From IMG/VR virus record IMGVR_UViG_3300029535_000005, positions 1 to 59,997 of that record: 59,997 bases of DNA; one strand, given 5' to 3'. Within the stretch, counting starts at the first letter, position 1. Every line of letters starts with the position of its first letter. The translations under genes and the position numbers were made by a program. The notes beneath the pieces were generated by a model, which was given only the letters and a program-made list of their open reading frames with translations, was not told where the DNA came from and did no database searches. This document shows, piece by piece, positions 11,052 to 56,029 of this stretch. The stretch is from a virus.

Positions 11052-13565
11052 ATGACATACAAAGAATTTTTAGAATCCAAGATTGAACTTGCAACAGAAA
11101 GCGGGTTCGTTGTGGATCCAGAAAAAGTAAATAAGGTATTAAAGCCACATCAGAGGGATGCGGTGGTGTGGGCACTGAAAGGCGGCAGGCGTGCATTGTT
11201 TGAGAGTTTCGGACTCGGAAAGACCGTGCAGGAGATTGAGTTTTGCCACTTAGCGGCGGAACACAGCGACGGCCGTGCGTTGATCGTGTTGCCGCTTGGA
11301 GTAAAGCAGGAGTTCACGCATGATGCGGTGGAAGTGCTTGGATATGGAAAGCCGGAGTATTGCCGGACAATGGAAGAAGTGGAGAAAAGCACAAGCCAGA
11401 TCGTATTGACGAATTATGAACGTGTCCGGGATGGAGATATCCGGCCAGACTACTTTACAGCAACATCACTCGATGAAGCCAGTGTTTTAAGGAGTTTTGG
11501 CAGCAAGACTTATCAGACATTCTTGGATAAATTCAAGAATGTTCCGTATAAGCTGGTAGCCACGGCAACACCATCGCCGAACAAATACAAAGAGCTGATC
11601 CATTACGCCGGATATCTGGAAGTGATGGATACAGGGCAGGCGTTGACACGGTTCTTCCAACGCGACAGCACAAAAGCGAACAATCTCACATTGTACCCAA
11701 ACATGGAAGATGAGTTTTGGATGTGGGTAAGCAGCTGGGCGCTTTTTATCACGAAACCTTCAGATCTCAATCCAGTATATTCCGATGCGGGATATGATCT
11801 ACCGCCACTTGATGTAAGATGGCATGAATTGCCGGTGCATTATGGCGATACAGCGGATAAGGACGGACAGATTCAGCTGTTTCAGGAAGCCGCCGAGGGA
11901 TTGAAAGAAGCCGCGGCAGTCAAGAGAGAAAGTATTGACCGCCGTGTAGCAGAAATGAAACGGATTGTGGAAGAATCGCCGGATGATCATTTCTTGTTAT
12001 GGCATGATCTGGAGAATGAACGGCATGCAATCAAGAAAGCACTGCCGGAAGTGGTGGATATCTACGGCTCGATGGACTATGACCTGCGTGAGCAGAGAGT
12101 AATTGATTTCTCGAATGGACGGACAAAGTTATTTGCCACAAAGAAATCATTATCCGGATCCGGATGTAATTTTCAGAGATATTGCCACCGCGAAATATTT
12201 CTTGGAATTGATTATGAGTTCAACGATTTTATTCAGGCGGTACACCGGTGTTATCGATTTTTACAGAAAGAACCGGTTGTGATCGACATTATCTACATGG
12301 AGAACGAGCGGCAGATCAAGGAAGCTTTGCTTGAAAAATGGAAGAATCACAATCACATGGTCGCGAAAATGATCGAGATTGTAAAAAAGTATGGTCTTAA
12401 TTCGGAGAATAAGGCGCAGCGGTTAGAAAGGAAGATGGGCGTGGAAGGTAGCAGAGAAGAAAGAACAGTAAGAGGAAACCATTATGAAGCGGTATATGGG
12501 GATTGTGTGGAGGAAACTCGAGCAATGGAAACGAACAGCATTGATCTGATACATACCTCGATTCCATTCGGCAACCATTACGAGTACAGCGCAAATTATA
12601 ACGATTTCGGACACAACCAGAACACGGACCGGTTCTTTGAACAGATGGACTTCCTCACGCCGGAATTGCTCCGGGTGTTAAAACCGGGGCGTGTGGCTGC
12701 AATCCATGTCAAGGATCGTGTGCTTTTTGGAAATGCAACAGGAACCGGAATGCCAACCATTGAACCATTTCACGCGCTTTGCATTGCGCATTATATGAAG
12801 CATGGTTTCCAGTATTTCGGAATGATTACTGTCGTGACTGATGTGGTCCGTGAGAATAACCAGACGTACCGGTTAGGGTGGACGGAGCAGTGCAAGGACG
12901 GATCCAAGATGGGCGTAGGATGCCCGGAATATATTCTGCTGTTCCGGAAACTGCCGACCGACAGATCCACTGCATACGCGGATGAACCGGTCAAGAAATC
13001 CAAAGAGGGTTACACGCGTGCGCAGTGGCAGATTGATGCGCATGGATACTGGAGATCCTCCGGCAATCGGTTAATCAGTAAAGAAGAATTGAAAGAGTTC
13101 CCGGTGGACAGCTTACAGCAGGTGTACAGGGAGTACAGCCGCGGCAGCGTATACAACTATGGGGATCATGTGAAACTTGCGGAAGATCTGGACAAGGACG
13201 GGAAACTACCGGCAACATTTATGGTCGTTGCTCCGGGATCGTGGAACCAGTTGGAAGTGTGGGACGACATCAACCGGATGCGAACCCTTAACACTACGCA
13301 GAGCCGCAGACGTGCCCAGATGCACGTATGCCCGTTACAGTTGGATATCGTGGAGAGAATCATCAACAGATATAGCAATGAGGGCGATACGGTCTATGAT
13401 CCGTTTGGTGGACTTATGACAGTACCAATGACAGCGGTCAAGATGCATCGGAACGGCAAAGGATGCGAACTGAATCAGGATTACTTCCGGGATGGCGTTG
13501 GATATCTGCAGGCTGCGGAGAATGAAGTGGACGAGCCGACATTGTTTGATTTTATGAAAGAATAG
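11052..13565 (+). CDS. SNF2/DEAD-like helicase domain fused to a DNA methyltransferase (N6-A or N4-C, beta-type motif order)
   Basis: Helicase motif I FGLGKT and motif II LDEAS. Methyltransferase motif IV-like TSIPF precedes motif I DPFGGLMT. Confidence 0.85.
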   Translation: MTYKEFLESKIELATESGFVVDPEKVNKVLKPHQRDAVVWALKGGRRALFESFGLGKTVQEIEFCHLAAEHSDGRALIVLPLGVKQEFTHDAVEVLGYGKPEYCRTMEEVEKSTSQIVLTNYERVRDGDIRPDYFTATSLDEASVLRSFGSKTYQTFLDKFKNVPYKLVATATPSPNKYKELIHYAGYLEVMDTGQALTRFFQRDSTKANNLTLYPNMEDEFWMWVSSWALFITKPSDLNPVYSDAGYDLPPLDVRWHELPVHYGDTADKDGQIQLFQEAAEGLKEAAAVKRESIDRRVAEMKRIVEESPDDHFLLWHDLENERHAIKKALPEVVDIYGSMDYDLREQRVIDFSNGRTKLFATKKSLSGSGCNFQRYCHREIFLGIDYEFNDFIQAVHRCYRFLQKEPVVIDIIYMENERQIKEALLEKWKNHNHMVAKMIEIVKKYGLNSENKAQRLERKMGVEGSREERTVRGNHYEAVYGDCVEETRAMETNSIDLIHTSIPFGNHYEYSANYNDFGHNQNTDRFFEQMDFLTPELLRVLKPGRVAAIHVKDRVLFGNATGTGMPTIEPFHALCIAHYMKHGFQYFGMITVVTDVVRENNQTYRLGWTEQCKDGSKMGVGCPEYILLFRKLPTDRSTAYADEPVKKSKEGYTRAQWQIDAHGYWRSSGNRLISKEELKEFPVDSLQQVYREYSRGSVYNYGDHVKLAEDLDKDGKLPATFMVVAPGSWNQLEVWDDINRMRTLNTTQSRRRAQMHVCPLQLDIVERIINRYSNEGDTVYDPFGGLMTVPMTAVKMHRNGKGCELNQDYFRDGVGYLQAAENEVDEPTLFDFMKE

Positions 13566-14585: not shown

Positions 14586-14810
14586 ATGAAGTTTTCAAAA
14601 CTGACTAAGCCAGAGCTTGAAGTAATTATTGAAAACGCCAATTTTACGGAGCAGGAAGAGGAAATATTTTCTCTTCTTGCCCGTGGATTTATACCAAAAG
14701 AAATATCAATGAAAATTTGTATTCCGCTAAGAACAGTAGAAAGGCGTATCTTTGATATAAAGCAAAAAGTCAAGAGATTGGAAGGTGATTTAAACGGAAA
14801 ATCTTTCTAA
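14586..14810 (+). CDS. Small sigma-70 region-4/LuxR-type HTH protein directly upstream of the integrase
   Basis: EEEIFSLLARGFIPKEISMKICIPLRTVERRIFDIKQKV. Confidence 0.65.
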   Translation: MKFSKLTKPELEVIIENANFTEQEEEIFSLLARGFIPKEISMKICIPLRTVERRIFDIKQKVKRLEGDLNGKSF

Positions 14811-14817
14811 GAGTGAA

Positions 14818-16020
14818 TTGTTGAATTTTGCCATTGAAAATGGTATTATCGACATAGACACCATTCAGAAAAAAATTGAGATGAACGAAAGGAAGAAATT
14901 TATTGAAAAACACAATTATAGCATTTGGGAAGGAAAAGACGGTAAGTTTTACACATATTTGCCCGATGAAGAAAGCCAGAGAGGGAAAAAACTTGTAAAA
15001 AGAACATCTGAAAAGGCGATAGAAGACGAGATAGTGAAGTTTTATAAAGCCATGGAAGATGAACCGACAATCAGCCAAGTATATTCTAGCTGGATTTCTG
15101 AAAAATTGGAATATGGTGAAATAACAAGGCAGACAAAAGACAAGTACGAGACAAATTTTAAAAGATTTTTTGAAAATAAGTATTTGCCGATTGCAAATAG
15201 AAAAATCCGGTATATTGACGAAGAAATATTGGAATCATTCATAAAAACAGCTATTTCAAAGCTGGAACTTACGCAGAAAGCGTACTCCGATATGCGGATA
15301 TTGATTAACGGAATTTTCAAATATGCAAAGAAAAAACATTATACCAGCTTAAGCATAACCAGTTTCATGGGTGATTTGGAAATTTCGGAAAAGTCATTTA
15401 AAAGGAATCATAAGTCTGACAACGAATTAGTTTTTTCTAAGGATGAAGAGCTTTTGATTGAACAATTCATAATGGAAAACCAGCCTACATTGATTGAACT
15501 TGGAATTATTTTGGCATTTAAAACCGGACTAAGGGTTGGAGAAATATCCACGCTTTCATGGTCAGATATTGAAGAAAATAAGATACATATATCAAAGACA
15601 GAAATACGATACCGAGATGATGGTGGCAAATATGTGTTTGATGTTCAGAATTTTCCAAAGAGCGATGCCGGATTTAGAGATGTTATAATTACCGAAGATA
15701 CCAATGAACTTATGAGAAAAATAAAAATGCTTAACCCTTTTGGAGAATATATTTTTATGAAAAACGGTAAAAGGATAAAAGGACAAGCATTTACAAGACG
15801 TTTATATGTGATATGCGATAAGGTGGGAATTGGTGAGCGATCGATTCATAAGGCGAGAAAGACATATGCTACAAAGCTTATAGATGGAAATGTTCCAGAA
15901 TCTGTAATAAAAACGCAAATGGGTCATACTGATATTAGAACAACGCTTGACCATTATTATTTTAATAATAAAACAGAGAGTGAGATGCAAGAATACATTG
16001 CGAAAGCACTATCGATGTAA
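14818..16020 (+). CDS. int: Tyrosine recombinase (phage integrase)
   Basis: GLRVGEISTLSWSDI, HKARKTYATKLI and MGHTDIRTTLDHYY give the R..HxxR..Y catalytic pattern. TTG start; the N-terminal boundary is uncertain. Confidence 0.9.
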   Translation: MLNFAIENGIIDIDTIQKKIEMNERKKFIEKHNYSIWEGKDGKFYTYLPDEESQRGKKLVKRTSEKAIEDEIVKFYKAMEDEPTISQVYSSWISEKLEYGEITRQTKDKYETNFKRFFENKYLPIANRKIRYIDEEILESFIKTAISKLELTQKAYSDMRILINGIFKYAKKKHYTSLSITSFMGDLEISEKSFKRNHKSDNELVFSKDEELLIEQFIMENQPTLIELGIILAFKTGLRVGEISTLSWSDIEENKIHISKTEIRYRDDGGKYVFDVQNFPKSDAGFRDVIITEDTNELMRKIKMLNPFGEYIFMKNGKRIKGQAFTRRLYVICDKVGIGERSIHKARKTYATKLIDGNVPESVIKTQMGHTDIRTTLDHYYFNNKTESEMQEYIAKALSM

Positions 16021-19878: not shown

Positions 19879-20121
19879 ATGAACAAATTTTTAGAAATAG
19901 TATACGCAAGTCAAATTGCAGATGAAGAACAGGGCGGGAAATGGCGTGAATTTTTTGAGCCGCTCATGGAGAGACTTAAGGGAATTGTGAGCGAAAGCGT
20001 TTATGATGAATTGCTCGAACTTCTTATTGACTGTACTACTGACAGCAACCGATTCTATGCCGTAGAGGGCATGAAACTTGCTATCGGCATTATGGACGGA
20101 ACTTATGTTCCGAAAGTATAA
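19879..20121 (+). CDS. Hypothetical protein
   Basis: 80 aa from ATG 19879. Confidence 0.55.
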   Translation: MNKFLEIVYASQIADEEQGGKWREFFEPLMERLKGIVSESVYDELLELLIDCTTDSNRFYAVEGMKLAIGIMDGTYVPKV

Positions 20122-26044: not shown

Positions 26045-26055
26045 ATTGTTTGCAT

Positions 26056-26127
26056 TGCTCGTTTGCCAAATGGTAAGGCACTGGGTTTTGATCCCAGCAT
26101 TTATCGGTTCGAGTCCGGTACGGGCAG
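26056..26127 (+). tRNA. tRNA-Gln (anticodon TTG)
   Basis: Hand-folded cloverleaf: TGCTCGT/ACGGGCA acceptor, GCC..GGC D-stem, CTGGG-TTTTGAT-CCCAG anticodon arm, ATCGG-TTCGAGT-CCGGT T-arm, discriminator G. No encoded CCA. Confidence 0.85.
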
Positions 26128-26148
26128 TTTTGAAAATGGAGGTAAATC

Positions 26149-26307
26149 ATGTTGATTTTAAAAACAGTCATAACAACATTTGATGCCCTTGCGATTTTGA
26201 CGTTTTTCTTGCTTGGAAGAGATGGCAGCAACGAAAAGGACGCTGTGGCAGTCTGGGGATCACTTATTGCATTGTTTCTTATCAATATATTTGCAATGTG
26301 GAGATGA
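26149..26307 (+). CDS. Small two-TM membrane protein (52 aa)
   Basis: GGAGGT RBS 6 nt upstream of the ATG, with hydrophobic segments. Confidence 0.5.
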   Translation: MLILKTVITTFDALAILTFFLLGRDGSNEKDAVAVWGSLIALFLINIFAMWR

Positions 26308-26605
26308 TGATATGGTTTTGTATGACCCGATATTTGGTATTCGCTTCCTGCCGGAAATTTTAACTACGGTCGGAAGAATACATATAAGCAGAAAAAAACA
26401 TACGGGAGAAACCGACGTTCTGGATCTTGACAGTGACGCTGAGCACCAGTCTGAGAAGTCGGAGCATCCAGTATAGCTTAAGTCCACTGGCATTCGGTTT
26501 TTGCAAGAAAAAACTCGGCGTAAGCAATTATTCGGTGTTAGTGGACGTCGGCAAAATAAAAAGATCAAAAATACTATCATAAACGGCGCGCTATGCGCGC
26601 TGTGA

Positions 26606-26694
26606 CGGAACGTAGTTCAGAGGAAAGAACAATCTTTTTATTCTTCCATGCTCTAGTGAATTGATAGCCGCAGGTTCAAGTCCTGCCGTTCCGA
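26606..26694 (+). ncRNA. Non-canonical tRNA-like element. Acceptor, D-arm and T-arm are present, but there is no foldable anticodon arm.
   Basis: CGGAACG/CGTTCCG acceptor, GTTC-AGAGGAAA-GAAC D-arm, GCAGG-TTCAAGT-CCTGC T-arm. The 39-nt middle segment does not form a 5-bp stem with a 7-nt loop. Confidence 0.4.
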
Positions 26695-27351
26695 TTGAGA
26701 AATAGGTTTAAAGCTTATCTCGGAATACGAAAAGTTCGTATTTCTCCTTTCGCTACTAGGAAGTTTCTGTTAAGGACGGTGCGAGACCGTCCGGTGGCGT
26801 TTGCCGCGGAGTGCGGCAAGGCGGAAGACCGCTTGGTGTTGGATAATGGTTGTCCCGTAATTTGCTGACGAGCAATACAGGCGGATTCCTATTGATAGTT
26901 CGGGTGCCTATCCCACGGTGCCTGAGCTGTCAAAAATACAATTAGGCTGTGGCGGAAAAAGGTAGACGCTTAAGCATAAGACAACCACGCTTTGGTTAGG
27001 AACAAGTCATTGAATTAACAAGGCAATGAAGGAACCTGTTAAGGGTGTTACCCGTTGTGGAAAGTCGTTGTTATGTGAGGTGCAAATCCTCACCAGCCTA
27101 TTTCCCGTGATATCGCACAGGATAGTGCAACGCATGGCACGAAAAATATGATTGCTAACCGTCTGATGGCGGTTCTCGTGGATGGCAAGAAAGGTATTTG
27201 CCGGAGTAAGACGCTTCGTGAAACTGATAGTCGAAAGGTTTCAAGTGCAAGGTTCAAGTCCTTGCTCCACGATGGTGCCGAGCTGATTTGATACTGTATG
27301 CGTAGCGCGCGGTCGCGTACAGAGATATGGAGTGAGGTGTCCGCGCATTTT
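26695..27351 (+). ncRNA. Candidate large structured ncRNA region containing two further tRNA-like modules (26944-27099 and 27176-27272)
   Basis: No credible ORF on either strand. Many GC-rich hairpins: GGACGG/CCGTCC 26774-26791, TTGCCGC/GCGGCAA 26801-26819, TTGCT-GACG-AGCAA 26862-26875, CTGTATGCG/CGCGTACAG 27293-27321. T-arm-like GTGAGG-TGCAAAT-CCTCAC and GCAAGG-TTCAAGT-CCTTGC. Confidence 0.45.
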
Positions 27352-27441
27352 GGGGAAGCGGCAACGATTGGAGGTGTTGCGGCTGACTGTAAATCAGTTC
27401 CCAAGTGGTAAACAATAGAGGTTCGATTCCTCTCTTCCCTA
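27352..27441 (+). tRNA. tRNA-Tyr (anticodon GTA), class II with a long variable arm
   Basis: GGGGAAG/CTTCCCT acceptor, GCTGA-CTGTAAA-TCAGT anticodon arm, AGAGG-TTCGATT-CCTCT T-arm, discriminator A. Confidence 0.75.
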
Positions 27442-27531
27442 TTTCACTCAACTCCCTAAAAACACTGTTTGGCAGGTGCGTGGTAGACAGTTGTAATGGA
27501 TGGGTTGTTTAAGAAATCGCACCATCAAGAT

Positions 27532-27616
27532 GCAGTGTTCCCATAATGGAATTGGAGCCGGTTGCTATCCGGTCGGGCGTTTATTCGCCTTGTAGGTTCG
27601 AGTCCTACACACTGCG
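27532..27616 (+). tRNA. tRNA-Ser (anticodon GCT), class II
   Basis: GCAGTGT/ACACTGC acceptor, GCCGG-TTGCTAT-CCGGT anticodon arm, GGCG..CGCC variable stem, GTAGG-TTCGAGT-CCTAC T-arm, discriminator G. Confidence 0.75.
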
Positions 27617-27731
27617 CTAACTTACGACAGGGATGAACCTTGCCGTAAGCGGTAGAAAGTCCGTGTGAAATTGTACAAAGTGGTGGCAAAAGCAATTTCG
27701 GATATAGCAGTTCCACCACACTGCTATATTT

Positions 27732-27815
27732 GCCGTATGTCCGGGTGGTGAGGGGGGGCGGTCTTGAAAACCGTTGGCTGTAAAAGGCTTGCAGGTTCAA
27801 ATCCTGTGTACGGCG
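27732..27815 (+). tRNA. tRNA-Ser (anticodon TGA), class II
   Basis: GCCGTAT/GTACGGC acceptor, GCGGT-CTTGAAA-ACCGT anticodon arm, GCAGG-TTCAAAT-CCTGT T-arm, discriminator G. The D-arm pairing is weak. Confidence 0.65.
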
Positions 27816-27925
27816 TTTGATTGAAAAAAAATCGAGCGTTAATGTGTGACGGAAAATGAACCGGAAATGATAGAAGTAACAACTTTGGAAGATTGTGAAC
27901 CTAGGTTTATGAGGAAGTGATTGAA

Positions 27926-50834: not shown

Positions 50835-51035
50835 ATGGTCAATGCCAAAATTCGTGAATTTGAAAATGATATTATAAATTACATCAATGCGAATAGTGAT
50901 ATTCCAATAGAAGTTAAACATCTGGTGATTAAGGATATTTTACACCAGGTAGAAGCGGAAGCAAACCGGCACGTTATCGCCGAGCGGGAGCAGATGCAGG
51001 AAAATCTTAAAAAGGAGAGCGAGGATCATGAATAA
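50835..51035 (+). CDS. Hypothetical protein
   Basis: 66-aa ORF. Confidence 0.55.
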   Translation: MVNAKIREFENDIINYINANSDIPIEVKHLVIKDILHQVEAEANRHVIAEREQMQENLKKESEDHE

Positions 51036-52794
51036 AGCATATAACCGTATCAACTGGGAGAATTACCCAAGCGATGCTACGCCTTTGAATGAAGCGAATC
51101 TCAACAGTTTGGACAGTGCCACAGATACCATTGACGACCGTGTGATTACGCTTGACACAACCAAGGCAACAAAAACAGAGGTTGCTACACTTGTATCAGA
51201 TGTGACATTTGAGGAATCTACAGGAATTATTACCATTACGAAGAAAAATGGCTCTAGGGTTACCATTGACACACAGATGGAGAAAATTGCTGTCAACTTT
51301 ACTTATAACCCGACTACACAGCAGATTATACTGACTCTGATCGATGGCACGAAGCAGTACATAGATTTATCGGCGCTGATTACGCAGTATGAATTTTTAG
51401 ACACGGATACAGTAGCATTTATCATCGATACAGACGGCAAGGTGTCAGCTATCGTAAAAGAGGGAAGCATCAAAGAAGAACATCTGGAACCAAACTATCT
51501 GGCAAAGGTCAAAGTAGAGGTTGCAAAGGCGCAAACAAGCGCAAGCAATGCTGCAACATCCGAGGATAATGCAAGAAGTGCGGCAACAGAGGCGCAGGAT
51601 AGTGCGACAGCGGCGGCAACATCCAAAAGCAATGCACAGACAAGTGCGGCGGCAGCGGCACAATCAGAATCTAATGCAAAGGCATCTGAGAATGTGGCAA
51701 AATCAAGCAGAGATTCAGCTGTTGAATCAGCACAGACCGCGACAGCGGCGGCAACATCCGCCAGTGAATCAGCAATTACAGCTAGTGAGAAAGCCGATAT
51801 TGCCACACGAAAAGCAACAGAAATTATCGGAAAAGCAGAATCTGCAGCAGATAGTGCAACCAAAGCACAGAGTTATGCCGTTGGCGGTACCGGCAGCCGG
51901 GAGGGAGAGGACTCTGATAATGCTAAATATTATTATCAGCAGGCAAAAGACGTATCAGAGGGACTAAAAGGTGGATTGCAGCCGCATGGCACGGTGGCTT
52001 TTGCAGATCTTCCGGCGCTTCCGGATGTCAATGCAGGATGGATGTACAATATTTCGGATGAATTTACGACCACGGACGATTTTAAAGAGGGCTCCGGCAA
52101 TGCAGTTCCCGCCGGCGCGAATATCTACAAAACGTCAGACGGAAAGTGGGATGTTCTGGCCGGTACCCCGGTGACGGGGGTCAAGGGTGCAAAAGAAACA
52201 TCCTATCGGCGAGGAAATGTCAATCTCACCCCAGAAAACATTGGGGCAGTAGCGACAGGTGGAGACACAGCGAGCAATGTCACATCATTTACAAGTAGTG
52301 ATGTGGCAGATGGATCAGCGCCATCGTGGACAAACGTTGCTACACTGACAAGTGGCGAAACGCATACTTCTCTTTTTGCGAAGGTATCGCAGATGTTTAA
52401 AAACGTGCGGTACTTGTATAAGATGTTCGGTACTACCGACATATCCTCTATTGGTGGCGGAACGGTAACGGGGGCTATCTCGTCGCAAAACAAAGCTTTA
52501 GCGCAAACTGTATTTTACGTTAATTCAAATAAAGAGCATACACCGGCATCTATAGTGGCCATATCTCGTCCTATAGCTTATACTAACGGAGTAGCAGAAC
52601 TTGACATATCGAGTTTTAAAATAACACCTATAATAGTGTTGTCTGTCAACGTTTTAGGATCGGAGATTACTCATGGTGCTCTTGCAAAAACGATTAACAA
52701 TGGGACTGCTCTTCGTTCTGTGCTGAATAACACGGAGTACAATGGCACGCTGATCACAGTTTTTACGGTAATGTGTTCTATGCCAGACGTATAG
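51028..52794 (+). CDS. Tail fiber or receptor-binding protein
   Basis: 588 aa. Ala/Ser/Thr-rich coiled segment (AKAQTSASNAATSEDNARSAATEAQDSATAAATS...) followed by globular C-terminal domains. Confidence 0.7.
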   Translation: MNKAYNRINWENYPSDATPLNEANLNSLDSATDTIDDRVITLDTTKATKTEVATLVSDVTFEESTGIITITKKNGSRVTIDTQMEKIAVNFTYNPTTQQIILTLIDGTKQYIDLSALITQYEFLDTDTVAFIIDTDGKVSAIVKEGSIKEEHLEPNYLAKVKVEVAKAQTSASNAATSEDNARSAATEAQDSATAAATSKSNAQTSAAAAAQSESNAKASENVAKSSRDSAVESAQTATAAATSASESAITASEKADIATRKATEIIGKAESAADSATKAQSYAVGGTGSREGEDSDNAKYYYQQAKDVSEGLKGGLQPHGTVAFADLPALPDVNAGWMYNISDEFTTTDDFKEGSGNAVPAGANIYKTSDGKWDVLAGTPVTGVKGAKETSYRRGNVNLTPENIGAVATGGDTASNVTSFTSSDVADGSAPSWTNVATLTSGETHTSLFAKVSQMFKNVRYLYKMFGTTDISSIGGGTVTGAISSQNKALAQTVFYVNSNKEHTPASIVAISRPIAYTNGVAELDISSFKITPIIVLSVNVLGSEITHGALAKTINNGTALRSVLNNTEYNGTLITVFTVMCSMPDV

Positions 52795-53233
52795 CCATCA
52801 TTCTCGCCCATCCAATTTCTACGTTGCTATCAGCTGCATAATGCTTGATCGTTGCGCTGACGGTTGCTGTATCGCTTGTTACATTGATAGTGTAAGTTTG
52901 CAAAAAATTAGCCCATATGCCCGTATCTGTATGAGGAGTACACAAATACGCCATTGATCCATATAAATCACCATCACTCTTTTTTAGCCCTAAATTGTAC
53001 GCAAAAGGTGTATGTGCGTTCAATTCGCCGCTTGATACTACTAACCACTTCCCTTTTGCTAATAGTAAAGTGTTTAGCTCGTATTCTATATTAGCGGACA
53101 ATTTACTGCTAATTAACAGCGTATCGGTTTGTTTATAATTACCTATGTTATTTAACTGTGCTAAAGCTTTGTTTGACGCACGAAATAGATGCATGTTAAA
53201 ATATGACGTAAAAAACGTTATATTTTTTCGCAA
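52778..53233 (-). CDS. Hypothetical protein, convergent with the tail fiber gene and overlapping it by 17 nt
   Basis: 151-aa ORF with no convincing RBS for either candidate start. It lies beside the repressor gene, where lysogeny-expressed genes often sit. Confidence 0.4.
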   Translation of the reverse strand: MRKNITFFTSYFNMHLFRASNKALAQLNNIGNYKQTDTLLISSKLSANIEYELNTLLLAKGKWLVVSSGELNAHTPFAYNLGLKKSDGDLYGSMAYLCTPHTDTGIWANFLQTYTINVTSDTATVSATIKHYAADSNVEIGWARMMAIRLA

Positions 53234-53439
53234 TTTAAACGTTTTTGTTGACCTAAAGTGACAAATCAGACGATTTGTGTCGAAACTTGCGACCGAAATG
53301 ATTTGAATAATGCTGGCAAAATTTGTAAAATAAAATTGTCCGATAAGGGCACTTCAAGTTCTGGAGAGGGGGCGATGTTTGGCGATTCATTGCCCTCTCA
53401 AATGTTACTGGTAAATAATGGTAATTTTTTTGTGTGGGG

Positions 53440-53468
53440 TTGACTGCAAAGAACGTACGTTCTATAAT
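53440..53468 (+). promoter_or_regulatory. Consensus sigma-A promoter with a GAAC-N4-GTTC (LexA/Cheo-type) palindrome in its spacer
   Basis: TTGACT 53440-53445, GAACGTACGTTC 53451-53462, TATAAT 53463-53468 (17-nt spacing). Confidence 0.65.
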
Positions 53469-53509
53469 GACATTAACATTATCGGTTGCAGAGATTGGAG
53501 GAGAATAAA

Positions 53510-53650
53510 ATGGGGGAAAATGAGTGCAATAAGGAAACAGCGTTTTACAAGGAAAAAATAACTGAAATGGTCGTTAAGTGCGACAACGAGCGATTTTTGA
53601 AATTTTTATATAACACAATACTTTCATTCAAAAAAAAGTGGGGCATTTAG
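53510..53650 (+). CDS. 46-aa protein under the LexA-box promoter (candidate antirepressor)
   Basis: TTGGAGGAGAATAAA RBS before the ATG. Sequence MGENECNKETAFYKEKITEMVVKCDNERFLKFLYNTILSFKKKWGI. Confidence 0.5.
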   Translation: MGENECNKETAFYKEKITEMVVKCDNERFLKFLYNTILSFKKKWGI

Positions 53651-53663
53651 TGCCCCTCTTTTT
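53630..53663. terminator. Bidirectional intrinsic terminator shared by the convergent genes
   Basis: An A-run, GGGGCA-TTTAG-TGCCCC, then a T-run. It overlaps both stop codons. Confidence 0.65.
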
Positions 53664-53997
53664 CATGCCAATAGGTTATATTGTCAAATATAGTCTGTCT
53701 ATGTTCTTTGCTAAGTTTCATTAGCATTTTTAAGTTATCGAGCAATTCACTATCTGACATAAGGTCTGGAAGAATATCTTGTGCGTTTTCTAAATTATCT
53801 TCCCAACCCATTAAATAAGATGGAGAAACTTCAAGAACTTTCCCAATAATTTCTATTTTATCACTTGGAATATTAGTAATAATGTTGTTTTCATATTTAT
53901 ATAGTGTTTGCTTTGAAACTTTTATTTTCTCTGCAAGCTCTACTTGTGAAATACCTAAAAGCTCTCTCTGCTTTTTTATCTTATCTCCGATTGTCAT
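53647..53997 (-). CDS. cI-like repressor: XRE HTH with no S24 peptidase domain
   Basis: MTIGDKIKKQRELLGISQVELAEKIKVSKQTLYKYENN...SPSYLMGW. Only 116 aa. Confidence 0.85.
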   Translation of the reverse strand: MTIGDKIKKQRELLGISQVELAEKIKVSKQTLYKYENNIITNIPSDKIEIIGKVLEVSPSYLMGWEDNLENAQDILPDLMSDSELLDNLKMLMKLSKEHRQTIFDNITYWHEKEGH

Positions 53998-54021
53998 TTG
54001 AGTTTTCCTCCTTTCCTATTG

Positions 54022-54118
54022 GTAACTTTATTATAACACAAAAAAGTTACTCGTCAAGAAAAAAATAACTTGACAAGTTACCAAAATGGAATATAATAAA
54101 AGTAACTTCAAAAGTTAC
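54022..54118. promoter_or_regulatory. Lysogeny switch: divergent promoters with GTAACTT-N3-AAGTTAC operators
   Basis: Plus strand: TTGACA 54070-54075, 16 nt, TATAAT 54092-54097. Minus strand: TTGACG (54052-54057), 16 nt, TATAAT (54030-54035). Operators at 54065-54081 and 54102-54118, with half-sites at 54022 and 54044. Confidence 0.7.
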
Positions 54119-54140
54119 GAAGTTAGAAAGGAGTAGTCAT

Positions 54141-54347
54141 ATGGTTGATACAAACAAACTTCGCGGCGTTATTGCTGAAAATGGCAAAACACAGGCTGAT
54201 GTTGCGGAAATGATTGGAGTTACGCCAAAAACATTTTATATGAGAATGAGTAAGGGCGTTTTTGGAAGCGACGAAATTCAGGTTATGATTGATAACCTTC
54301 ACATCCAAAATCCAATGGATATTTTTTTTGCAAAGAAAGTAACTTAA
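54141..54347 (+). CDS. Cro-like HTH regulator
   Basis: 68 aa, divergent from the repressor. Sequence KLRGVIAENGKTQADVAEMIGVTPKTFYMRMSKG. Confidence 0.7.
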   Translation: MVDTNKLRGVIAENGKTQADVAEMIGVTPKTFYMRMSKGVFGSDEIQVMIDNLHIQNPMDIFFAKKVT

Positions 54348-54377
54348 AAAGTTACTAGAAAGGAGATGTAAAAAACA

Positions 54378-54632
54378 TTGGAAAAATCAAGATATTCTGT
54401 TTTGGATTCATCTGGAAAAGCAACGATTGTTGAGCGTAAAGACGGAAGATATATTGACATTGAAGAAATGGCGCAGCATGTCGCATTTAATGTTTTGGAC
54501 GATTACAGCAAAATTCTTAATGGCGAAAAGAAAATTGATGAGACAAACATTAGATTGTCTATCAATGTTCTCAACGCCGTTGCTCCGTTAGCAAAATATT
54601 TTAGAACGGGCTGTGCCTACGGAAAGGATTAG
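54378..54632 (+). CDS. Hypothetical protein (TTG start)
   Basis: 84-aa ORF that overlaps a convergent small ORF. Confidence 0.4.
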   Translation: MEKSRYSVLDSSGKATIVERKDGRYIDIEEMAQHVAFNVLDDYSKILNGEKKIDETNIRLSINVLNAVAPLAKYFRTGCAYGKD

Positions 54633-54839: not shown

Positions 54840-55580
54840 TTGGAGAAAACGGACGAGTTAGTGAAAGTCAATTTTGATACACAGACAGTATCGGCAAGAG
54901 AACTGCACGATCAGTTACATATTGGAACAAGATTTAACGATTGGTTCCCACGTATGACAGAATATGGATTTGTAGAGGGAACAGACTTTTACTCAAAAAT
55001 GAGTAAAACCGATAATGGTGGCAGACCATCAACAGATTACGAAATTTCTGTAGACATGGCAAAGCAGATTTGCATGATTCAGAGAACACCAGAGGGTAAA
55101 GCAGTCCGCCAGTACCTCATCGACTTGGAAAAGGCGTGGAACACACCAGAGCAGGTATTTGCCAGAGCGTTAAAGATGGCTGACGAGAAAATCAACAGCC
55201 TTAAGGAAAACAACACAAGGCTGATTGCGGAAAATCAGCGTATGAGACCGAAGGAAATTTTTGCAGATGCGGTGTCGGCAAGCCACACATCAATTCTTAT
55301 CGGAGATTTGGCAAAGCTGATTTGCCAGAACGGCTATCAGATAGGACAGAAGCGGTTGTTTGAGTGGTTGCGTGAGAATAACTTCCTTATTAAATGTGGT
55401 TCATCGAAGAATATGCCACAGCAGAGATATGTTGAACAGGGGTTATTCGAGGTAAAGGAAAGCAACGTGCAGAATCCGGATGGATCAGTAAGGATCACTC
55501 GGACAACTAAGGTAACTGGAAAAGGACAGATATATTTTGTCAACAAATTCTTGAACAGAGGTTATTTTTATGAAAAATAG
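54840..55580 (+). CDS. Phage antirepressor (AntA-like N-terminal and KilAC C-terminal domains)
   Basis: VSARELHDQLHIGTRFNDWFPRMTEYGFVEGTDFY and IFADAVSASHTSILIGDLAKLICQNGYQIGQKRLFEWLRENNFLIK. Confidence 0.8.
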   Translation: MEKTDELVKVNFDTQTVSARELHDQLHIGTRFNDWFPRMTEYGFVEGTDFYSKMSKTDNGGRPSTDYEISVDMAKQICMIQRTPEGKAVRQYLIDLEKAWNTPEQVFARALKMADEKINSLKENNTRLIAENQRMRPKEIFADAVSASHTSILIGDLAKLICQNGYQIGQKRLFEWLRENNFLIKCGSSKNMPQQRYVEQGLFEVKESNVQNPDGSVRITRTTKVTGKGQIYFVNKFLNRGYFYEK

Positions 55581-55642: not shown

Positions 55643-56029
55643 ATGGATAAACAAACGAACATTGCTTTAAGAAAAACGTTAGATCAGATCGGCGCAAGCC
55701 ATTCGCTCAAAGGATACACATACACAATTAGAGCGATAGAGAAATGTCTGGACGACAGGGATGCGCTTAGATGTGTTATGAAGGAAATTTATGCAAAAAT
55801 CGCAGAAGAGAACGGAACTACCGCATCCAAAGTAGAAAGAAACATCCGGAACTTAATAGAGGTCACATGGATAAATGGCAATGTGAATGCGATCAATGAG
55901 ATTTTTGGCTATACGGTTTCGCCGAAAAAGGGGAAGCCAACCAATTCAGAATTTATTGCGGTAATAACAGATTTTGTGTCCTTGCACGGGCAGGAAATTG
56001 AAAGTGATTCTTATAAGTGGCGGGAGTGA
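55643..56029 (+). CDS. Spo0A C-terminal (DNA-binding) domain protein without a receiver domain
   Basis: KGYTYTIRAIEKC...IYAKIAEENGTTASKVERNIRNLIEVTW...INEIFGYTVSPKKGKPTNSEFIAVI closely parallels the Spo0A effector domain. Confidence 0.85.
   Translation: MDKQTNIALRKTLDQIGASHSLKGYTYTIRAIEKCLDDRDALRCVMKEIYAKIAEENGTTASKVERNIRNLIEVTWINGNVNAINEIFGYTVSPKKGKPTNSEFIAVITDFVSLHGQEIESDSYKWRE

Follow-up and report, generated by a model that had tools for sequence, protein, structure and literature searches.

How could a prophage sense damage to the DNA of its host when its repressor has no domain for self-cleavage? This question is raised by the immunity region of IMG/VR virus record IMGVR_UViG_3300029535_000005, of which positions 1 to 59,997 were analyzed (hereafter called the window). 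The window is the nearly complete genome of a temperate, siphovirus-like phage of Lachnospiraceae, about 60 kb in size. Its immunity region consists, in order, of a small gene, a repressor gene on the opposite strand, a pair of divergent promoters, and a cro-like gene. The small gene codes for a protein of only 46 amino acids (aa), and its promoter contains a sequence that resembles a binding site for the LexA protein of the host. We propose that the small gene is a LexA-controlled antirepressor of the neighboring peptidase-less repressor, which would couple the phage to the SOS response, and we give this reading a probability of roughly 60%.

The question extends beyond a single phage. Prophage induction in the dominant butyrate-producing Firmicutes of the gut is poorly understood, and almost none of their phages can be cultured for study.

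A LexA-type box within a near-consensus promoter

The promoter of the small gene (53440-53468, plus strand) consists of the -35 element TTGACT (53440-53445), a spacer of 17 nucleotides (nt), and the -10 element TATAAT (53463-53468). It received 11 of 12 points in a promoter scan and was outscored only by the cro-side promoter of the same region. Both TTGAC and TATAAT are invariant in an alignment of diverged relatives. Within the spacer is the core GAACGTACGTTC (GAAC-N4-GTTC, 53451-53462), and the A and T that flank it complete the perfect 14-base-pair (bp) palindrome AGAACGTACGTTCT (53450-53463), a candidate LexA box of the Cheo type, or SOS box. The last T of this palindrome is also the first base of the -10 element, such that the box fills the spacer between the two promoter elements. 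Judged by its position, the box overlaps the promoter as would be needed for bound LexA to block RNA polymerase.

Translation of the small gene appears well provided for. A ribosome-binding site (RBS) reading GGAGGAG (53498-53504, plus strand) is located 5 nt ahead of the ATG, and GGAGGA is kept in the alignment of relatives. A preliminary description of this DNA, made from the sequence alone, had drawn attention to a near-consensus promoter with a GAAC-N4-GTTC palindrome abutting its -10 element, and to a strong RBS followed by a 46-aa open reading frame (ORF). Both observations are confirmed here.

The LexA box of Clostridia is described as GAAC-N4-GTT[CT] (PMC4234289). More generally, one study reports that gut Firmicutes have a well-defined LexA motif of the Gram-positive type; with this motif, LexA sites were mapped in the human gut metagenome, and three of them were shown to bind LexA from B. 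subtilis (PMC3998124). In the 60-kb window, GAAC-N4-GTTC was observed twice whereas 0.54 occurrences are expected, and therefore the box is weak evidence when only the window is considered. The second copy (GAACTTATGTTC at 20099) is located inside a coding region and lacks a promoter, and it was taken as a chance occurrence.

Conservation of the box among diverged lineages

The doubt left by the window count is removed by comparative data. Nine of 15 diverged lineages carry GAAC-N4-GTT[CT] no more than 130 nt upstream of a homologous small ORF (binomial P = 2.5e-15). The background rate of this motif is 7.2e-5 per nt, which corresponds to 0.009 expected matches per 130-nt upstream stretch. Moreover, the background matches that were checked in the window and in related loci all reside in coding DNA.

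In six of these diverged lineages the box occupies the same position in the promoter spacer, and three more have a box at other positions. Same-position boxes are found despite flanking sequences that cannot be aligned, as is evident from the window type (GAACGTACGTTC), a second type termed B (GAACATAAGTTC), and lineage L009 (GAACATATGTTC). Even among close relatives there are three promoter backgrounds that do not align with each other, and all of them have the arrangement TTGAC / GAAC-N4-GTTC / TATAAT, with GTAC or ATAC, ATAA, and ATAT as the central four nucleotides.

Additional examples come from lineages whose repressors are ~70% identical to that of the window. The box of L181, L183, and L185 (GAACAGATGTTC) and that of L178 (GAACATTTGTTC) are in the same promoter place. 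L172 carries AAACGTTTGTTC there, with AAAC as its left half-site (AAAC-GTTT-GTTC), and on the opposite strand this site reads GAACAAACGTTT, which is the commonest form in Clostridioides difficile. Boxes at other positions are exemplified by L187 and L188, where GAACGTGCGTTT is located between the -10 element and the RBS, and by L014 (two GAAC-N4-GTTT boxes) and L018 (CGAACAAAAGTTCG), where they occur elsewhere in the promoter region.

Overall, the central four nucleotides can be GTAC, ATAC, ATAA, ATAT, AGAT, or ATTT, in addition to the GTTT of L172. At least six promoter backgrounds that have diverged from each other retain the GAAC/GTTC half-sites, whereas their centers and flanks drift. Constant half-sites with a drifting center and drifting flanks are the pattern expected of a LexA site of the Cheo type, and the sequence comparison supports assigning the box to this type. 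The earlier reading of the palindrome as a LexA-type box has therefore gained substance from the 9 of 15 lineages in which it recurs.

Another short sequence is found in the leader of the small gene. Several otherwise diverged lineages (L020, L009, L172, L181, and L187) have the motif (T)ATCGCTAC or GTAGCTAC 10-20 nt past the -10 element, and the window version (~53478-53490) reads ATTATCGGTTGC.

Lineages without the canonical box have other palindromes, or an extra small gene for a helix-turn-helix (HTH) protein ahead of the small ORF. The palindrome of the L093 group is ACAAAACAGTCTGTTTTGT, and in L184 a 63-aa HTH gene precedes the small ORF. Members L093-L098, L100, L108, and L133 carry a 19-bp palindrome, ACAAAACAG-T-CTGTTTTGT, about 70 nt upstream of the small ORF and beside a TTGACG element, with no LexA box. 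The 19-bp palindrome suggests that another regulator acts on the same small gene in the L093 lineage. In box-less relatives, this gene appears to be wired to other inputs.

A protein-coding gene that shares a terminator with the repressor gene

The small gene extends from its ATG at 53510 to a TAG at 53648-53650 (plus strand) and codes for the candidate antirepressor MGENECNKETAFYKEKITEMVVKCDNERFLKFLYNTILSFKKKWGI. Its protein relatives with 62-100% identity form 25 clusters, and a further 42 representatives are more distant, with E values down to 1e-7. The family consensus is YKxKIIEMVxxIxNxxFLxFLYNxxxSFKKKWGI. Among 22 distinct coding sequences, third codon positions vary most, and the ratio of nonsynonymous to synonymous variation (pN/pS) is 0.44 in the body of the protein. 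In the tail SFKKKWGI this ratio falls to 0.054. Because synonymous sites of the tail do vary (pS 0.61), the tail must be conserved as protein and not merely through its overlap with the terminator described below. The small ORF is a real gene under purifying selection.

In every locus examined, the small gene is convergent with a gene for an HTH repressor of ~117 aa that ends in ...YW[YH]EKEG[HR]. The earlier proposal that the small ORF is a genuine gene tied to the repressor is upheld by this constant arrangement and by the purifying selection. Gene callers missed the small gene or gave it a wrong start in several contigs.

The two genes meet in a bidirectional intrinsic terminator (53630-53664, both strands), which comprises A8, a hairpin at 53640-53656, and a T-rich tail (TCTTTTTC). 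The loop of the hairpin, GGGGCA-TTTAG-TGCCCC, holds both stop codons: the TAG of the small gene (53648-53650) overlaps the TAA of the repressor gene (53649-53647, minus strand), and the gene ends overlap by 4 nt. The hairpin is rated as a terminator on both strands, with folding z scores of -4.1 and -3.4 relative to shuffled sequence. A stop-codon overlap inside a bidirectional terminator hairpin had been part of the preliminary description, and the sequence and these scores agree with it.

This terminator is conserved in all lineages, and its sequence also codes for the ends of both proteins. The codons for KKKWGI in the small protein span the A-tract and left hairpin arm, and those for EKEGH in the repressor span the right arm and T-tract. 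In L181, L183, and L185, the A-T pair at the top of the stem is replaced by a compensatory G-C pair (GGGGCG...CGCCCC), which changes I to V in the small protein and H to R in the repressor. This compensatory pair indicates that the hairpin itself is under selection.

An AlphaFold2 model of the small protein predicts a helical hairpin with helices at residues 4-23 and 27-44 (predicted local distance difference test score, or pLDDT, of 83.6). Searches with the small protein against Pfam, PHROG, PADLOC, and PDB sequences (E <= 10), and Foldseek searches against PDB structures, gave no matches. Two possible identities were considered and set aside. Mimicry of the repressor by homology, as for SinI, was rejected because profile-profile alignment (hhalign) of the small-protein family with the repressor family yielded a probability of 0.1. 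A secreted signaling peptide of the RRNPP or arbitrium type was rejected because the protein has a highly charged N-terminus and no signal peptide, and because the repressor is too short to contain a TPR receptor domain.

The repressor and its operators

The repressor gene (53647-53997, minus strand) codes for a CI-like protein of 116 aa that matches the Pfam family HTH_3 (E 1.8e-14). The Pfam search returned HTH families only and no S24 or peptidase domain, which corroborates the earlier claim of a peptidase-less repressor. This protein belongs to a large family (1638 homologues at E <= 1e-5).

In the AlphaFold2 model of the repressor (pLDDT 85), an HTH domain is followed by helices at residues 65-81, 83-93, and 97-113. 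Among PDB entries, SinR of the SinR/SinI complex (1b0n_A) matches it best, both by sequence (E 3.6e-9) and by Foldseek (E 3.2e-5, 113 columns, spanning the whole length). Weaker fold matches include those to the complex of the phi106 repressor with AimX (9sf2_A, full-length, E 7e-3) and to the AimC structure 9iaq. By sequence, the match to 9sf2_A has E values of 8e-7 to 1e-4 and mostly covers the generic HTH region (positions 4-75 and 4-91 of the profile). According to the predicted fold, the repressor is a protein of the SinR/AimC-like two-domain plan, with an HTH domain and a small helical C-terminal domain.

Two consensus promoters diverge upstream of the repressor gene. The repressor promoter (54057-54030, minus strand) reads TTGACG-16-TATAAT and received 11 of 12 points in the scan, and the cro-side promoter (54070-54097, plus strand) reads TTGACA-16-TATAAT and received 12 of 12. 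Candidate operators with the sequence GTAACTT-N3-AAGTTAC are located at 54065-54081 and 54102-54118, and a third (54339-54355) follows the cro-like gene. These three matches compare with 0.13 expected. Since the operators occur only at 54065, 54102, and 54339, and none at the small-gene promoter, control of that promoter by the CI-like repressor was rejected.

The cro-like gene (54141-54347, plus strand) codes for 68 aa, has weak matches to HTH_3 and to PHROG repressors, and is the first gene of the early lytic operon. Its place in related loci is mostly taken by a gene for 68-69 aa, and in the class that includes L010 by one for 85 aa.

A recombinant class in which half of the small protein is exchanged

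The class formed by L010-L012 (L010:6001-6544) may be informative with regard to the presumed partner of the small protein. Its promoter, box, and first ~27 codons are nearly identical to those of the common type. Past this breakpoint, the small ORF codes for a different helix 2 (EEWLKLIYIYVKRLLE), which forms part of a cassette together with a 124-aa repressor of another family, with an unrelated C-terminal domain, and a different cro-like gene. In the structural model, the breakpoint at codon ~27 corresponds to the loop between the two predicted helices. The variant small gene is likewise convergent with its other-family repressor gene and shares a terminator with it. Judging from these sequences, the joint exchange of helix 2 and repressor is what would be expected if helix 2 carries specificity for the cognate repressor.

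A proposed mechanism and its alternatives

From the anatomy and the conservation that we observe, we infer LexA binding, inducibility, and a protein contact in this candidate module, which might operate as follows. In the lysogen, host LexA would occupy the spacer box of the near-consensus sigma-A promoter and silence the 46-aa gene, as the motif, its position, and its conservation imply. On DNA damage, RecA would become activated, LexA would cleave itself, and the small-gene promoter would fire. The resulting short mRNA would stop at the shared terminator, confining its overlap with the repressor mRNA to the hairpin. The 46-aa protein would then bind the helical C-terminal oligomerization domain of the repressor, mainly through helix 2 and the tail SFKKKWGI. 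Finally, repressor oligomers would be broken, the GTAACTT-N3-AAGTTAC operators would be freed, and the cro-like gene and early operon would be turned on. The antirepression step is proposed on the basis of the constant synteny, the way in which helix 2 and repressor have been exchanged together, and the analogy to AimX-AimC and SinI-SinR.

Several points weigh against this proposal. The canonical box is absent from 6 of the 15 lineages (L013, L015/L099, L016, L017, the L093 group, and L184), and thus the small-gene family is not defined by control through LexA. The definition of the box is taken from the Clostridia literature (PMC4234289). In L178, an ORF of 120 aa extends into the promoter on the same strand, and read-through transcription might therefore also reach the small gene. 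Likewise, physical linkage alone could account for the joint inheritance of helix 2 and repressor. The low hhalign probability given above applies to the comparison of the small-protein family with the repressor's C-terminal domain. Neither by sequence nor by fold does the small protein match AimX, even though the PDB includes 9sf2. With no match to AimX or to this C-terminal domain, the analogy is architectural only.

Could the small protein be induced by the SOS response and yet act on some other target, such as LexA or RecA, other host functions in the SOS response, or competing phages? The lack of homology to any characterized antirepressor (Pfam, PHROG, PADLOC, PDB, and Foldseek) leaves room for this, and small phage proteins with LexA as their target are known (PMC4551915). 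Nevertheless, the small gene stays linked with the 3′ end of the repressor gene throughout a family whose members have diverged to ~40% identity, and helix 2 has been swapped along with the type of repressor. SOS division inhibitors of the YneA type in Gram-positive bacteria are membrane-anchored and have a hydrophobic stretch; the small protein is highly charged and has no such stretch. A LexA co-repressor similar to gp7 would make no sense if its own gene were repressed by LexA. For these reasons we regard a different target as quite unlikely. Even less probable is the idea that the promoter answers to LexA and the effector is transcription or RNA, where collision with the repressor transcript, or an antisense effect on it, would lower repressor synthesis. 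The two genes do converge and their ends overlap by 4 nt, and the same idea was the first to be put forward for aimX/aimC (10.1101/2025.11.23.689978). However, the strong bidirectional terminator that separates the genes, with its compensatory changes, limits the overlap to the hairpin, and the small ORF has both a strong RBS and purifying selection at the protein level. For phi106, experiments in which the overlap was recoded or translation was stopped showed that the protein, and not the RNA, is the effector (10.1101/2025.11.23.689978).

It is also conceivable that the palindrome serves as operator for some regulator other than host LexA, whether phage-encoded or not, and that the promoter answers a different signal. 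Box-less relatives with other palindromes or an extra HTH gene (ACAAAACAGTCTGTTTTGT in the L093 group, the 63-aa gene in L184) would be precedents for such wiring, and LexA-like proteins are encoded by some phages (PMC6182141). Several features nonetheless make this very unlikely. The GAAC/GTT[CT] half-sites alone are conserved, whereas the central nucleotides, flanks, strand, and promoter position all vary, as would be expected if a single ubiquitous host factor had been recruited repeatedly. The 12-nt core of the box fits the B. subtilis LexA consensus CGAAC-RNRY-GTTYC, and the operators of the phage itself differ from it in sequence. LexA control of an antirepressor protein is thus the reading that we carry forward.

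A candidate structured RNA upstream of the small gene

Directly upstream of the small-gene promoter is a candidate small structured RNA (53303-53432, plus strand). It begins with the promoter-like sequence TTGAAT-17-TAAAAT (53303-53331, plus strand), followed by a short P1 hairpin (53337-53351), the invariant sequence CTTCAAGTTCTGG (53352-53364), a GC-rich P2 hairpin (53366-53399), and a third hairpin with U7 (53404-53432). In eight lineages, 10 of the 13 pairs of P2 have compensatory changes. The plus strand folds with -31.2 kcal/mol (z score -3.2), versus -13.6 kcal/mol (z score -0.5) for the minus strand. A search of 52700-54400 against Rfam gave no family match.

The candidate RNA accompanies lineages that have the LexA box in the promoter spacer, and in L178 it instead precedes the 120-aa ORF, which is lipoprotein-like. 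A role for CTTCAAGTTCTGG as the crossover site of an invertible tail-fiber segment was rejected, because no inverted copy is present and a match with one mismatch at 14610 is inside a coding ORF. A further conserved motif, TGTCGAAACTTGCGA (53278-53292), is located upstream of the candidate RNA promoter and is also present in L020, L181, L183, and L185. In L181 and L183 it is preceded by the partial direct repeat TTGTCGAATA(C/T)TGTCGAAAC. This motif may be a binding site for a regulator.

Genomic setting, hosts, and neighboring genes

The window encodes a tyrosine integrase (14818-16020) and a GH25/LysM endolysin. Upstream of the switch are a tail-fiber gene (51028-52794), the minus-strand ORF described below, and DNA that does not code for protein. 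Relatives in genome bins have Roseburia, Acetatifactor, and unclassified Lachnospiraceae as hosts, and in one case unclassified Eubacteriales. Phages of this kind are common in human gut metagenomes, where some contigs are several hundred kb long. A rescan of viral contigs with a different lead sequence uncovered little extra diversity. Among the phages of the INPHARED collection, the switch has no close relative with annotation, and matches are limited to the Ant gene and the terminase gene.

A position for variable cargo seems to separate the tail genes from the switch. In the window this slot is occupied by a 151-aa ORF on the minus strand (52778-53233) that overlaps the end of the tail-fiber gene and has no Pfam, PHROG, or PADLOC matches. 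Related phages have ORFs of 105, 108, or 138 aa in this slot, or a gene for a 262-aa HTH_26 protein.

Family searches of the early operon identified an AntA/ANT protein, a protein with a Spo0A C-terminal domain, and an SLT-domain protein, and SSB is next in close relatives. The AntA/ANT gene (54840-55580, plus strand) is a classical gene of the type annotated as an antirepressor and is downstream of the cro-like gene. Because it is part of the early operon, the phage repressor would silence it, and it is therefore unlikely to be the trigger of induction. The ANT protein may act on other prophages. The 128-aa Spo0A-domain protein (55643-56029, plus strand) consists solely of the DNA-binding domain (PF08769, E 1.7e-34), lacks a receiver domain, and is kept in relatives. 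It could allow the phage to interfere with sporulation control in its host.

Two other features of the window were noted. An SNF2-related helicase domain is fused to a domain for N6/N4 DNA methylation in an 837-aa protein (11052-13565, plus strand). Five clustered tRNA genes (26055-27816, plus strand) comprise Gln, Lys, Tyr, and two Ser tRNAs; at 89 nt, the tRNA-Lys call is unusually long, and position 29 holds its anticodon.

Implications for prophage induction in gut bacteria

The principle by which LexA controls a small antirepressor is already known. The family described here is large, unannotated, and present in ecologically important gut bacteria. If the proposed mechanism is correct, it would explain how widespread Lachnospiraceae prophages with non-cleavable repressors sense DNA damage, such as that caused by antibiotics, colibactin, or chemotherapy. 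It would also mean that the breakup of repressor oligomers by a small helical protein, in the manner of AimX and SinI, extends beyond Bacillus and beyond arbitrium. In metagenomic phages, the small gene (36-50 aa) is in several cases uncalled or called with a wrong start. A search signature consisting of a LexA box, a small ORF, a shared terminator, and a short HTH repressor could be used to annotate thousands of such phages.

The rewiring of the promoter from lineage to lineage and the neighboring structured RNA also provide leads. In a much broader interpretation, the small gene would provide a very large family of phage switches in Lachnospiraceae with a general input port that can be rewired. 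This family comprises 1638 relatives of the repressor and, at 50% identity, at least 42 clusters of the small protein. LexA would serve as the input in some lineages and other regulators in others, specificity would reside in the swappable helix 2 and the tails KKKWGI and EKEGH, and the RNA at 53336-53432 would possibly be a new regulatory RNA in the lysis-lysogeny decision. We consider this combination speculative and, taken as a whole, unlikely.

Comparison with known systems

Small phage-encoded antagonists under SOS control have been described before. The coliphage 186 protein Tum, the Gifsy antirepressors, and Sar of SPbeta/phi3T share with the present module the logic of a repressor that RecA does not cleave, a small antirepressor under an SOS box, and specific pairs of the two. 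These proteins and the repressors that they target are unrelated to those of the window, in which the small gene also abuts the repressor gene. Tum, in comparison, is a protein of ~146 aa whose gene is distant from the repressor gene of 186. Sar is a LexA-controlled small antirepressor of a repressor with an integrase fold (10.1101/2025.11.27.690993). The preliminary description had offered Tum as a precedent, and the shared logic of a LexA-controlled antirepressor stands, although AimX/AimC, SinI/SinR, and Sar are nearer than Tum.

The same description had named GIL01 as well. GIL01 gp7 is a very small phage protein linked to the LexA-dependent control of a Gram-positive temperate phage, and this much it has in common with the small gene. 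By binding to LexA, gp7 strengthens repression, and at P1 the phage repressor is LexA itself (PMC4551915). The window phage differs in having a dedicated CI-like repressor, and its small gene would be a target of LexA and not a partner. GIL01 is therefore a poor comparison.

SinR and SinI offer a closer parallel. SinR is of similar size (111 aa, versus 116 aa for the repressor) and is the best PDB match by both sequence and fold. SinI is a small helical antagonist, and by analogy the 46-aa protein would likewise act on a C-terminal multimerization domain. SinI, however, is homologous to the C-terminal domain of SinR, and no such similarity is detectable here. Furthermore, sinI is upstream of sinR on the same strand and is controlled by Spo0A, not LexA (PMC3163267), unlike the arrangement in the window. 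SinR-SinI is also a chromosomal switch for biofilm formation rather than a phage switch.

The closest known system is AimX-AimC-AimL of the "extended arbitrium" Bacillus phages, especially phi106 (PDB 9sf2 and 9iaq). In phi106, AimX is encoded by a 29-aa ORF located just downstream of a LexA site, in convergent overlap with the 3′ end of the gene for AimC, which is short and non-cleavable (10.1101/2025.11.23.689978). AimX binds the C-terminal domain of AimC to form a heterodimer, and thereby oligomerization and DNA binding are blocked (Kabel et al., 10.1101/2025.11.23.689978). The authors of that study liken AimX-AimC to SinI-SinR (10.1101/2025.11.23.689978).

The similarities between the two modules are numerous. 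A small ORF (29-80 aa in those phages, 46 aa here) is convergent with, and overlaps the 3′ end of, the gene for a short HTH repressor (80-140 aa in those phages). The repressor lacks an autocleavage domain, faces a divergent cro-like gene, and has an HTH domain joined to a small helical C-terminal domain, which in AimC serves for oligomerization. Just upstream of the small ORF is a LexA site in phi106 and a candidate LexA box here, and in both cases the small proteins are mostly helical, by prediction in the window, and covary with the repressor.

There are also clear differences. The extended arbitrium module is located downstream of aimR and aimP, with its small ORF on the strand of aimP. 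The window has no aimR or aimP, and upstream of its module are the tail-fiber gene, the variable minus-strand gene, and the candidate small RNA. LexA would be the sole input, and the promoter that it would act on is of the consensus type and independent of an activator. The hosts are Lachnospiraceae, which are Clostridia, rather than Bacillus, and both stop codons are held in one terminator loop. What the repressor shares with AimC and SinR is only the generic HTH and the two-domain plan. By sequence and by analogy, the module would work like AimX-AimC or SinI-SinR while belonging to neither family. Most likely, the wiring of LexA to an antirepressor that was recently proven in Bacillus phages has been built here from unrelated proteins.

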